DNA from: a phage
Reading direction: 5' to 3' (one strand)
Sequence record: PZ347775.1
DNA: 64,000 nucleotides
In this document: piece after piece, positions 57,751-64,000 of the stretch
Numbering within the stretch: position 1 is the first letter of the stretch
Layout: each line of letters begins with the position of its first letter
Notes under the pieces: generated by a model
Databases searched by the model: none
What the model was told of the DNA's origin: nothing
What the model saw: the letters and a program-made list of their open reading frames with translations, nothing else
Program-made: the position numbers and the translations under genes

Positions 57751-58113
57751 TTAAAAGAATTTAAATTTTTTCTTTGACCTTTTATTAAATGCATCTTGTA
57801 GTTGCATTGTAATACATTTTTCTACATGAGGAGCTAACTCAGCTTTTCTTTCTTGGTCAAGAACAGCAAAGTCCATTACGACTTTTCCATCAACCCAATC
57901 TAATTTTGTCACATACACAATGTGTGTAGAACCGTCTTCTAGTTTAATGACAATCTCCTGGATAACATTTTCCATGGCAGATTTAATTATCTTAAGAGAT
58001 TCATTAAAAAGACGTTCTTTTCTTTCTTCTTCCCCCTCCGAAGAGGGGGATTCATCGATAATTTCTAGATCTAAATCTAAATCATCTTTATTCATTAAAT
58101 TCTTCCATATCAC
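57751..58113 (-). CDS. 40: probable gp40 (head vertex assembly chaperone)
   Basis: 120-aa ORF (start uncertain, overlaps uvsX 3' end) between uvsX and 41 as T4 gene 40. Confidence 0.55.
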   Translation of the reverse strand: MIWKNLMNKDDLDLDLEIIDESPSSEGEEERKERLFNESLKIIKSAMENVIQEIVIKLEDGSTHIVYVTKLDWVDGKVVMDFAVLDQERKAELAPHVEKCITMQLQDAFNKRSKKKFKFF

Positions 58114-59269
58114 TTAACTGATCTAGGTCAGTTTCTAAATCAGCTGCTGATTTACTTTTACTTTCTGGAGATTTAAATTTTTCAACCTTTGAGTTAATCA
58201 ATTCATCAACTTCAGCTTCAACAATTTCATTACTATCAATAGCACCTAACTGATAAGCGCGTTTAATAGCATCTCGGAATGGTTGATGCTTAAATAAAGG
58301 ACCCCAGAATGTAGTGCAATTGGTATCTTTTGCACGCCAAGATTTTTCTTCGCGAATCATCTCGCCGGTTTCTTCATCAAGAAATTCACGAGCATACCAA
58401 CCATTTTTAGGTTTTACTACAAATCCTAGTTCAAGAGCCATATCTAACAATCCAGAATAAGGATCGATACCACCGTCAAATTTAACATCAATAAAGAATT
58501 TACTTTTTTCTTTGACGGTACGAGATTTTTCTACATTTAGAACAAATTGATACCCCTGAAGATCAGAACCATCTTTAATCTGACGCTTACCGATAATGAA
58601 TACAGTATCAGCTGAATACATTACGCCTGTACCACCTGTCATCACGGTTTTACTAAACATTTCAATTGTTTCAATTGTGTGGTTAACCGCAACACATGGA
58701 ATATTTTTAATGCTAAAATAAGGAGTAACAATACGGAATAATGACTTCAGTGATTTAGCACGAGTCATATCTGCCACAGATTTTTCATTCAAGGCATCTT
58801 CCGTTTCTTTCTTAGAAGCCATATTACCGATTGAGTCGATGAATACAATAACTTTTTCACCGCGCTCAATAGCTTCAAGCTGATTCACCATATCAATTTT
58901 CAGTTGTTCAACTGACTGGATTGGTGTATGAATTACTCGTTCCGGGTCAACTCCCATGGATCGCAAATAAGCTGGAGTAATACCAAATTCACTATCATAA
59001 AATAGACAAACCGCGTCAGGATATTTGTTCAAATACGCCGCAACCATAGTCAAAGACATATTTGATTTAAAGTGTTTAGAAGGACCTGCAAAAATGGTTA
59101 AACCAGACTGCATACCACCATCAATCGCGCCGGAAATAGCGATATTGAGCATTGGGATTTTTGTACGGATTACATCCTTTTCATTAAAGAATTTAGATGT
59201 AGTCAGTTCAGCAGTCATTTTAGAAGTGGAAGCTTTAATCAAACGGGATTTTAAATCTGCAATAGACAT
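58088..59269 (-). CDS. uvsX: recombinase UvsX (RecA/Rad51 family)
   Basis: 393 aa; Walker A GPSKHFKS; RecA core. Confidence 0.95.
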   Translation of the reverse strand: MSIADLKSRLIKASTSKMTAELTTSKFFNEKDVIRTKIPMLNIAISGAIDGGMQSGLTIFAGPSKHFKSNMSLTMVAAYLNKYPDAVCLFYDSEFGITPAYLRSMGVDPERVIHTPIQSVEQLKIDMVNQLEAIERGEKVIVFIDSIGNMASKKETEDALNEKSVADMTRAKSLKSLFRIVTPYFSIKNIPCVAVNHTIETIEMFSKTVMTGGTGVMYSADTVFIIGKRQIKDGSDLQGYQFVLNVEKSRTVKEKSKFFIDVKFDGGIDPYSGLLDMALELGFVVKPKNGWYAREFLDEETGEMIREEKSWRAKDTNCTTFWGPLFKHQPFRDAIKRAYQLGAIDSNEIVEAEVDELINSKVEKFKSPESKSKSAADLETDLDQLSDMEEFNE

Positions 59270-59346
59270 TCATTTTTTCCATAGGCATCATTATATTTTC
59301 CTCACTGGTTAAAGATAGAGTAATTATAACACAATAAATTTAGGCA

Positions 59347-60195
59347 TTAATCAACCGCTATTGGATGAATAGCATTAAACTTATGAAACGCTTCTGATTT
59401 TTCTTTGCGTGAAACACACATGCGAAGAACCTTTAATGGCTCGTCTTCTTCACCTAATGATTTTCGTTTTTCAATATTAGAAGTTTTCCAACGAGCTTGC
59501 TCTGGAAACTCTCTATTGATTTGCTCAAGAGCTCTATTATGTTTTGAATTACTACGAATTGAACTACATCCACCGGGGGCTTGTGCTTTTCCAGATACAA
59601 CTAGATATTTGAACAAGGCCAAATGCGGATAACCTTGATTAATTAAATTGAGAAATGCATACATATCTTCGCATAAATCAATTTTTCCATACCCAATTTG
59701 TTCTGTTGTAAGTTTTCCTAAATCATACCAGGTATTCGTGAATCCGTATGAATTTTCACGATAATTACCCCAAGATGAAGTAATTTTAAAAATAGGTAGA
59801 CGAGCATGACCATGATAATACCCGCAATCCATGGCATCTTCAACGTATTGAATCAATTCATAGAACTGTTCACGAGTTAACTGATTAATTTTATCTACGC
59901 AGCGACGATCATCTTTCTTTCGCATTGAACTCATACGAATAGTAGTATCATCATCAATCATCCAAATTCGTTGACCTGCATACATATCAGTAATTGCTTT
60001 ACGAGTTCCAGCAATTCCATTAACATCATCAGGAATAGTTATAATTTTAGCCCTAGACCCGTAAGCGTCATAATAAGCTTTTTCTTCATGTTCACGTACT
60101 ACAATATGAGGTTCATAATCAGTCGGAAACATATCAAGGGCAGAAACTGCCCCTACGCGTTGATAGCTTGGAATTACGAATTGAATCATTTCCAC
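59347..60195 (-). CDS. glycosyltransferase (GT-A fold, DxD)
   Basis: 282 aa; N-terminal FVIPSYQR and DxD motif WMIDDD; sits where T4 carries beta-gt but looks unrelated to it. Confidence 0.55.
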   Translation of the reverse strand: MEMIQFVIPSYQRVGAVSALDMFPTDYEPHIVVREHEEKAYYDAYGSRAKIITIPDDVNGIAGTRKAITDMYAGQRIWMIDDDTTIRMSSMRKKDDRRCVDKINQLTREQFYELIQYVEDAMDCGYYHGHARLPIFKITSSWGNYRENSYGFTNTWYDLGKLTTEQIGYGKIDLCEDMYAFLNLINQGYPHLALFKYLVVSGKAQAPGGCSSIRSNSKHNRALEQINREFPEQARWKTSNIEKRKSLGEEDEPLKVLRMCVSRKEKSEAFHKFNAIHPIAVD

Positions 60196-60926
60196 TCACC
60201 GTTATAATCTTTTTTCGCAATATGGGTTTCGCCAGTTTTCCACCAATGGTCAACCAAATAAAAATGACGGGAATACACATGAAGGCTCCCGACATTCCAT
60301 ATAATGGAACCTGCTTTATACTGACGAGTTGAATCACCTGCATTCAAATCAGATACTAATTTATCTAGTACGTATTTTTGCCATGCATAATCATTACGGA
60401 ATCCGAAGACCACGTCATTTGAACGCATGTTAACCACTGCATTAATTTTCTTATCACGAATCAGGTACTGTACTGTATTAGTACACATGAAATCTGACAT
60501 GCCATCTTTATTGTAGTCAAATTGCATGGATGGACGAGTATAAATCATGATACCACGTCGAGAATCAGGATTTTGACCAAGTTCAGCTAAACACATATCA
60601 TATTGGGCATAGTTATCTTCTGACCAGATGGCCCAACCATAATTCGAGTTAATTTCGCCTTTAGAAGATGCTACCTGCTGCCAAATCTTTGGTGTTTCAC
60701 CTGGAATATCTTTAACAAACAGACTTTGAGACTTATACCATTCAAGTTCACGCTGAATGTATTCATCATTAAGAGCGCCAAAAATAAAAGGTTCATCTGC
60801 TACAAATGATGCACCAATAATTTCAATAGTTTTAACCCCGGTTTTATCAATTACGAAATCTTTTTCCTTTAATGCAAGACCCAAATCAAGACGGATTTCT
60901 TCAACTGTCATATAATCGTTAATCAT
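60186..60926 (-). CDS. 42: dCMP hydroxymethylase
   Basis: 246 aa as T4 gp42; thymidylate-synthase-like fold. Confidence 0.9.
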   Translation of the reverse strand: MINDYMTVEEIRLDLGLALKEKDFVIDKTGVKTIEIIGASFVADEPFIFGALNDEYIQRELEWYKSQSLFVKDIPGETPKIWQQVASSKGEINSNYGWAIWSEDNYAQYDMCLAELGQNPDSRRGIMIYTRPSMQFDYNKDGMSDFMCTNTVQYLIRDKKINAVVNMRSNDVVFGFRNDYAWQKYVLDKLVSDLNAGDSTRQYKAGSIIWNVGSLHVYSRHFYLVDHWWKTGETHIAKKDYNGEWK

Positions 60927-60933
60927 TTAAACC

Positions 60934-61083
60934 TCAATTGATGCATTCATATTTAATTTGTAACAGTAATAAACTCCAACCTATAATAAGTGGCGGAATC
61001 ATAAGAGGAACTGTTACGCTATAGTATATACTTATTATAATCATTAAGATTAAAAGCAATACTGCTAAAATTTTGCTTTTCAT
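60934..61083 (-). CDS. small membrane protein (49 aa)
   Basis: Hand-read ORF MKSKILAVLLLILMIIISIYYSV...; ATGA overlap with imm stop. Confidence 0.35.
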   Translation of the reverse strand: MKSKILAVLLLILMIIISIYYSVTVPLMIPPLIIGWSLLLLQIKYECIN

Positions 61084-61719: not shown

Positions 61720-61729
61720 AATAATTTCC

Positions 61730-61966
61730 TCAAATACAAGTAGTAATTACTCCAGTAGTGCTTACACAGGTATTACCTAATTGAACACCCAGCGTTCCAT
61801 TAGTATTCATATGAAGATTATCATCAATTTTTGTTGATACTTTACCATTCATGTGAATAATAGTATTAGATTCAATCACATTCTGAGTGTCATTTTCAAT
61901 ATCAATAAATGGAACAGTTGCTAATGCAACTAAACACACTGCTAAACAACCATAAACAATTTTCAT
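61730..61966 (-). CDS. secreted/membrane protein (about 78 aa)
   Basis: Track ORF trimmed to MKIVYGCLAVCLVALATVPF (signal-like N-terminus); upstream track residues are promoter cassette. Confidence 0.45.
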   Translation of the reverse strand: MKIVYGCLAVCLVALATVPFIDIENDTQNVIESNTIIHMNGKVSTKIDDNLHMNTNGTLGVQLGNTCVSTTGVITTCI

Positions 61967-62000
61967 TTTATTCTCCAAATCCGTATCAGTTGATAGTTGT

Positions 62001-62030
62001 ATAGTATCATGGAAGAACGGGAATGTAAAC
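62001..62030 (-). promoter_or_regulatory. sigma70 early promoter (GTTTAC -35, TACTAT -10), cassette copy C
   Basis: Reverse complement GTTTAC-18nt-TACTAT; leader nearly identical to copy B at 34595-34637. Confidence 0.55.
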
Positions 62031-62112
62031 AGTTTTGTGAAAAAATTTTTAATGAATTTACAGGACCTAGAATCATCTATTTTTCCTAAGTATAGATTTA
62101 TATTACTTGTAT

Positions 62113-62135
62113 GAAAAAGGGACCCGGAGGTCCCT
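62113..62135 (-). terminator. rho-independent terminator after gene 43
   Basis: mRNA agggacc-UCCG-ggucccu hairpin followed by UUUUU. Confidence 0.65.
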
Positions 62136-62147
62136 AGATTTATTCTA

Positions 62148-64000
62148 TCAGCCAAACAGGAAGTCTAACGAAGCTTTTTCCTCATAGTCCATACCTGCCG
62201 ATTCACACATACCCGCAAGCGGTTTAACAAACGATTTTTGGAACAAAGTTGAGTAGTCAATCCAAGACAGCACGTCAGAACGAATTTCTTTTGGAAGTTC
62301 CGTACCCGATGGCCAAGCAATGCACTTGTCACCAAATGGATTTCCTTCACGTAATGGAAGAACCATTACCTTATTTCCATCCAAAATTGGAGCTACACCT
62401 AAACCGCTAACAGCTCGACGATAAGTTAGCACACCACGAATATGGAACGGACATTTAAATCCTGGCCAACCTTTATCATCATATTTCGCTATATCGTTCG
62501 CAGTTTTTACTTCAGCAATAACTTTATAGTCAAGTTGACGATATTCTTTCTCAAAGTTCTTGTAGTATTCTTGGACAGACTCTTCGCCTTCCTGAAGAAT
62601 ACGACGAATACTTTCTTCGAGAGCTTCTTGTACTGCTTTTGGTGTTGAGCTCTGCTGAGTTTCCATACCCATGATTTTTAGATGCGGTTCGGCAAATCGC
62701 TTATCTTCCATATCATAAACGTTCAGAGCATAACGTTTTTTCGCTTTCCAAAATCCACCAACGCCCTTTGAACCAAGCGGAGGGCAAGAAATAGCTTCAC
62801 GGTCCATATGCATCAGATGCTCGCGGTTATTCATATAATCACATAACTCACGATATGCAACATCAATCATAGGTTCCATCTTTTTCTTACCAAACTGATT
62901 CATGAATTCAACTAAATCATTTTGTTCTTTAAAGCGATCAAGACCTACTTTTTCAATAACTTTATCTACACAAACATATACCGAATCAGTATCACCTGCT
63001 GCGATGAAATCTTCACCATTAGTTCCACATACTTTATTCAGATATTCATTAATTTTGCGAGCAATCCACTGAATACCAACTTGTCCAAAAATCGTGATAG
63101 CAGTAGCATTTCGCAAATCATAGTAGCGGAAATGAATATTACCAAGAGCACCATAAAGACTGTTGATAAGAATTTTACGGTTCAGCTGATTTGTGTTAGC
63201 AAGTGTAGCTGCTTTTTCACATTCTTCAATCAAACTATTGAGAACAGATTCAGTATAATTCGATAGTTCATTTAAGAAATCATCACTGAACTTAACATAT
63301 CGTTCAACTTCAGGTTTAGTTGAACAGGACCCTGCACCTTTCATAATAATCTTTTTAATAGCTTCGGCATTCATTTCTTCGGCGAACATTTTCTTTTTCC
63401 AATCTTTACGCTGGAAAAATACTTTAGCGATTTCCTTTGGAATGATACCTTCTTGATGCTTATCATACATCCATCCATTCGGAGAACATGAATACTCATC
63501 ACTTGGCTTAGGAGCTGTTCCTGCGATATATTCATGAATTGGATGAACTTTAAACTGTCCACGAATAGTCTCAGGACTAATGTTAACCTGACGAATAATG
63601 CTAGGATACAGAGACGTCAAGTCAAAACTCATAATGTATCGACGAGCAATTGGTTTAGGTTCAAACACAAATGCACCCGGAAAACTCTGTTTAACGTGTG
63701 AACCTTGTTGAGGAATAACCTTATGTTCACTTTTCAACGAGTTAAAAATAATAGCATCCCAAGTTTTAATAGGACTCATTACACCAGAAAAAGGCATTTT
63801 AGCATAATAAGACATACTTAAAACTAGATCGATAAACCCACGAATTTTATCAATTGCTTGAACTGATTCTACGTCAATAATGTTATAACTAATGTATCGT
63901 TGATGATTAGTCTCACGAAGTTTATTAATAGGACCATCGTACGGCAATTTACCTTTTTTGGTTTCATGTTGAGCAACTGATTCCAAAGAGAATGATGGCA
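62148..64000 (-). CDS. 43: DNA polymerase gp43, C-terminal part (5' end beyond window)
   Basis: Family B polymerase motifs DLTSLYPSII (motif A) and AGDTDSVYV (motif C); frame continues to window edge. Confidence 0.95.
   Translation of the reverse strand, partial: PSFSLESVAQHETKKGKLPYDGPINKLRETNHQRYISYNIIDVESVQAIDKIRGFIDLVLSMSYYAKMPFSGVMSPIKTWDAIIFNSLKSEHKVIPQQGSHVKQSFPGAFVFEPKPIARRYIMSFDLTSLYPSIIRQVNISPETIRGQFKVHPIHEYIAGTAPKPSDEYSCSPNGWMYDKHQEGIIPKEIAKVFFQRKDWKKKMFAEEMNAEAIKKIIMKGAGSCSTKPEVERYVKFSDDFLNELSNYTESVLNSLIEECEKAATLANTNQLNRKILINSLYGALGNIHFRYYDLRNATAITIFGQVGIQWIARKINEYLNKVCGTNGEDFIAAGDTDSVYVCVDKVIEKVGLDRFKEQNDLVEFMNQFGKKKMEPMIDVAYRELCDYMNNREHLMHMDREAISCPPLGSKGVGGFWKAKKRYALNVYDMEDKRFAEPHLKIMGMETQQSSTPKAVQEALEESIRRILQEGEESVQEYYKNFEKEYRQLDYKVIAEVKTANDIAKYDDKGWPGFKCPFHIRGVLTYRRAVSGLGVAPILDGNKVMVLPLREGNPFGDKCIAWPSGTELPKEIRSDVLSWIDYSTLFQKSFVKPLAGMCESAGMDYEEKASLDFLFG

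Follow-up and report, generated by a model that had tools for sequence, protein, structure and literature searches.

Between uvsX and gene 42, phage T4 carries segA and the gene for beta-glucosyltransferase (beta-gt, 351 aa), and the question raised by the phage studied here (sequence record PZ347775.1, analysed as a stretch of 64,000 nt, hereafter the window) is which enzyme takes up this position and how the hmC of the phage would be glucosylated. We assign the gene, with a probability of about 0.95, to the T2/T6-type beta-glucosyl-HMC-alpha-glucosyltransferase (ba-gt, also ggt; Pfam TAGT).

The gene and its locus

The following features were placed on the window (1-based coordinates):

58088–59269, minus strand: uvsX, downstream boundary of the locus (product 90% identical to T4 UvsX)
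59258–60203, no strand assigned: block of 946 bp without similarity to T4 DNA (blastn of the window against T4)
59347–60189, minus strand: ba-gt (ggt, TAGT), beta-glucosyl-HMC-alpha-glucosyltransferase, 280 aa (ORF, orthology, PF20691, PHROG 842, predicted GT-A fold)
59347–59349, minus strand: stop codon of ba-gt (ORF reading)
59665–59670, minus strand: E174-D175; D175 is invariant and a candidate catalytic base
59947–59955, minus strand: DDD, residues 79–81 within MIDDD (77–81), the DxD metal and nucleotide-sugar binding motif of GT-A enzymes, aligning with DDDD of the GT2 glucosyltransferase 9jma
60157–60180, minus strand: FVIPSYQR, residues 4–11, a GT2-like nucleotide-binding start aligning with IPTYNR of 9jma
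60186–60926, minus strand: gene 42, dCMP hydroxymethylase (product 96% identical to T4 gp42)

The original prediction had described a 282-aa protein at this locus with an FVIPSYQR N-terminus and a DxD motif, MIDDD. Both motifs were found, and the ORF is real; its length needs correction. The minus-strand ORF in the ORF list (59347–60195) has 282 codons if counted from a GTG, and the likely start, as read from the sequence, is the ATG at 60189–60187, which gives a protein of 280 aa (N-terminus MIQFVIPSYQR) and a CDS of 843 bp. We prefer 280 aa because this ATG overlaps the TGA stop of gene 42 (60188–60186) by four bases, as ATGA, and because the annotated start in T2, REP4, PP01 and Solly is at the same ATG, with the same 843-bp CDS and the same 4-base overlap. 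The overlap probably couples translation of ba-gt to that of gene 42. A promoter and terminator scan around the locus was uninformative on expression, since promoter-like sites were no more frequent than in shuffled sequence.

The neighbours listed above place the gene between uvsX and 42 as predicted, in the slot of T4 beta-gt, although segA had been left out of that description of T4. In the blastn comparison with T4, similarity stopped 12 nt inside uvsX, at 59257, and restarted at 60204, which is 18 nt short of the gene 42 stop; the 946-bp block of the window stands in the place of 1941 bp in T4 that comprise segA and beta-gt. The spacer between uvsX and the glycosyltransferase gene is just 77 bp (59270–59346), and the segA homing endonuclease of T4 is missing from it. 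The G+C content of ba-gt is 35.9%, against 35.5% for the window, 30.9% for T4 beta-gt and 30.3% for T4 segA; a more recent acquisition of the T4 segA and beta-gt block would fit its G+C content, about 5 points lower, and would be in line with its rarity (PMC13216743).

Several further observations concern the neighbouring DNA. The interval from gene 42 to imm contains a very hydrophobic ORF of 49 aa (60934–61083, minus strand); this ORF is annotated in Solly (SOLLY_046) and not in T4, T2 or PP01. Between imm.1 and gene 43, a 239-bp stretch with no T4 counterpart (61720–61958) carries a small ORF (61730–62155, minus strand) that probably encodes a 78-aa protein starting at an internal ATG and hydrophobic at its N-terminus. 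This ORF gave no NCBIfam match; its equivalent in PP01 is the hypothetical CDS PP01_048, and in REP4 and T2 (RB51ORF048) the slot is filled by CDSs that differ from it in length. A perfect palindromic GC-rich hairpin (AGGGACC-CGGA-GGTCCCT, 62118–62135), terminator-like on the minus strand, was found immediately past the stop of gene 43. A stop splitting gene 43 near the end of the window, considered on account of a listed 612-aa ORF, was ruled out by translation, in which the frame runs off the window.

Family assignment and predicted fold

Direct alignment of the window protein over 280 aa gave 99% identity to the T2 protein (AP018813) and 98% to the T6 protein (AP018814), both encoded at the same locus. 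A megablast search with 59000–60500 returned 599 phage records, nearly all of Tequatrovirus, in which the gene is annotated as beta-glucosyl-HMC-alpha-glucosyltransferase, and tblastn with the protein matched 690 phage records, with 100% identical proteins in ime09, phiC600P9 and ZCEC15 and 63–66% identity in Klebsiella and Enterobacter T4-like phages. The protein matched PHROG 842 ('beta-glucosyl-HMC-alpha-glucosyltransferase', 5.6e-89) and Pfam PF20691 (TAGT, TET-associated glycosyltransferase; 38.8 bits, E = 1.2e-9, gathering score 27.5; residues 3–207 on profile positions 2–205); no NCBIfam model matched it. The suggestion in the original prediction of a T2/T6-type beta-glucosyl-HMC-alpha-glucosyltransferase is thus borne out by the identities, the PHROG match and a Pfam score above the gathering score. 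The gene is the already-known ba-gt, the usual occupant of the uvsX-42 position, and as such an ordinary finding.

Sequence searches of solved structures, by the single protein and by the family profile, found no relative, the only match being a marginal, N-terminal one to 9jma (E = 0.23). The fold predicted by a moderately confident structure model (mean pLDDT 70.7; three loops below 50) is GT-A, that of nucleotide-diphospho-sugar transferases, with a DxD motif; the two-Rossmann-domain arrangement of GT-B was not found in the model. The GT-A hallmarks read earlier from the sequence are consistent with this prediction.

When 1.84 billion representative proteins were searched with a profile (threshold E ≤ 0.001), 2146 representative clusters of the TAGT family were recovered. 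Across 153 aligned full-length members, R11, R63, D79, D80, D81, D175, G186, G206, G207 and R212 were conserved at 93–100%, and the window protein retains every one of them. D79, D80 and D81 were conserved at 99%, 100% and 95%, respectively, D175 in all 153 sequences, and residue 11 was Arg in 151 of 151 ungapped sequences. Since a beta linkage arises from UDP-alpha-glucose, the mechanism would be inverting, and ba-gt is a GT2-like glycosyltransferase, presumably of this kind; by analogy with GT2-type enzymes, D175 is a plausible catalytic base.

The position of the gene, the same as that of T4 beta-gt, could also suggest a diverged homologue of that enzyme. Homology to T4 beta-gt was ruled out by BLASTP (E = 3.4, no meaningful alignment), by the predicted GT-A fold as against the GT-B fold of T4 beta-gt (PMC13216743), and by the blastn result for the block, which has no DNA similarity to T4; a tblastn search of the whole window with T4 beta-gt was likewise negative. 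The protein is therefore unrelated to T4 beta-gt, as originally proposed, while it aligns closely with the T2 and T6 proteins.

Glucosylation pathway and DNA composition

Orthology, family membership, predicted fold, synteny and the retention of family-invariant residues were obtained in the present analysis; activity and DNA composition are assigned by analogy, from literature on near-identical enzymes. In the proposed pathway, gp42 would make hm-dCMP, the source of the hmC glucosylated later; after replication, a phage alpha-glucosyltransferase encoded outside the window would place alpha-glucose on hmC in DNA; and the ba-gt enzyme would then add a second glucose from UDP-glucose, beta-1,6 to the alpha-glucose, yielding gentiobiosyl-hmC. 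T2 and T6 are without beta-gt and encode alpha-gt together with the beta-1,6 second-glucose enzyme that forms gentiobiosyl-hmC, which amounts to about 5% in T2 and 72% in T6 (PMC6024577; bioRxiv 10.64898/2026.02.25.707755).

No match to alpha-gt was found in the window by tblastn with the T2, T6 and REP4 proteins. The window ends inside gene 43, and the expected alpha-gt position, beyond genes 43–47, falls outside it; in the close relative REP4, alpha-gt is found a further 11.6 kb on, a location shared by T2 and T6. The presence of alpha-gt in this phage would accordingly be expected from its relatives. The pair alpha-gt and TAGT is the majority arrangement in Tequatrovirus, and only 6 of 753 genomes have the T4 pair alpha-gt and beta-gt (PMC13216743); ba-gt is also present in most RB phages (PMC6024577). 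The earlier description of the locus as a variant does not hold, since it is the T4 arrangement that is the exception.

An enzyme acting directly on hmC, as the primary DNA glycosyltransferase, has been proposed for solitary TAGT homologues, and 288 of the 753 phages have a TAGT homologue with neither alpha-gt nor beta-gt (PMC13216743). The large size of the TAGT family and the lack of alpha-gt within the window would agree with such a role here. We regard it as highly improbable for the window protein: the identity of 98–99% is to second-step enzymes, alpha-gt is present in close relatives that share the locus, and T6 deletion mutants of ba-gt retain alpha-glucosyl-hmC and lose only the second glucose (PMC11078745; bioRxiv 10.64898/2026.02.25.707755).

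With ba-gt as the second-step enzyme, the extent of the second step is a separate matter. DNA of the Solly group contains about two-thirds gentiobiosyl-hmC, and the second step there has been assigned to a TAGT gene syntenic with T4 beta-gt (PMC13390438); the Solly protein is 99.3% identical to the window protein. By analogy, we infer that the DNA of the window's phage would be T6- or Solly-like, with mostly gentiobiosyl-hmC and unglucosylated hmC. A weak enzyme, leaving the DNA T2-like with mostly mono-alpha-glucosyl-hmC and a few per cent gentiobiosyl-hmC, appears unlikely. The T2 gene is 99% identical, yet T2 has little gentiobiosyl-hmC (PMC6024577, PMC13390438), and the ratio in the Durham phages EL, BGP and Geo, 1:2:2, is intermediate (PMC13390438); against this, the enzymes of the Solly group, with their high gentiobiosyl-hmC content, are near-identical, and the window protein matches the consensus at all family-invariant positions, among them R11, which is His in both T2 records.

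The window protein differs from T2 ba-gt by four substitutions (R11, K92, I101 and P251) and from T6 record AP018814 by five substitutions plus an additional Asp in DDD. Where these differences fall at conserved positions, the window allele carries the consensus of the family; K92 and I101, which differ from T2, T6 and Solly and are both common to REP4, are at variable positions. Residue 11 (window 60157–60159) is His in both T2 records (AP018813, record segment 4283–5125; MH751506, record segment 2286–3128) and Arg in the window, T6, Solly and REP4. T2 His11 may, on sequence grounds, be a hypomorphic allele that explains the low gentiobiosyl-hmC content of T2 relative to T6. Tentatively, and with the odds against it, single-residue differences in ba-gt, not regulation, would determine the balance between mono- and di-glucosyl hmC, T2 being a hypomorph and phages like that of the window making mostly gentiobiosyl, T6-like DNA. 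The T6 records themselves differ: in AP018814 (record segment 4135–4974) one Asp of the invariant DDD is missing (MIDDTT), and in MH550421 (record segment 2138–2986) there is a stop at codon 10, with the CDS annotated from Met20 (261 aa). These are either laboratory-stock lesions or sequencing errors.

Host defence and comparison with known systems

With gentiobiosyl-hmC in its DNA, a phage is open to a different set of host defences. In vitro, gentiobiosyl-hmC protects T6 DNA against the Brig1 glycosylase, and deletion of ba-gt increases the Brig1 sensitivity of T6 (PMC11078745); the BapA glucosidase is unable to take glucose off gentiobiosyl-hmC (bioRxiv 10.64898/2026.02.25.707755), and GmrSD-type enzymes, BrxU among them, remain able to cut gentiobiosyl-hmC DNA (PMC13390438, PMC13216743). 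The expectation that the type of glucosylation would change susceptibility to host attack accordingly has documented support for T6 in the first two of these sources. For the window's phage, ba-gt shows only that it belongs to the majority type of Tequatrovirus, the T2/T6 type, and points to no new biology.

The closest known systems are the ba-gt genes of T2 and T6 (ggt, g-gt; UniProt Q06717 and Q06718, respectively, as cited in PMC6024577), with which the window gene shares the uvsX-42 locus, the 280-aa length and the ATGA overlap with gene 42. With the PF20691 TAGT family (GT-A fold, sister to GT2) the protein shares R11, DDD, D175, GG, R212 and a full-length profile match. Unlike the TET association in the family name, there is no TET/JBP dioxygenase here, gp42 supplying the hydroxymethyl group at the nucleotide level, and the acceptor would, by analogy, be the sugar already on hmC and not the base. 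T4 beta-glucosyltransferase (GT63, PF09198, GT-B) occupies the same slot, and in both cases the donor is UDP-glucose and a beta linkage is made on phage hmC DNA; the T4 block also holds segA, which the window block does not. The two enzymes are unrelated in sequence and fold, and T4 beta-gt acts on hmC directly, whereas the window enzyme would act on alpha-glucosyl-hmC.
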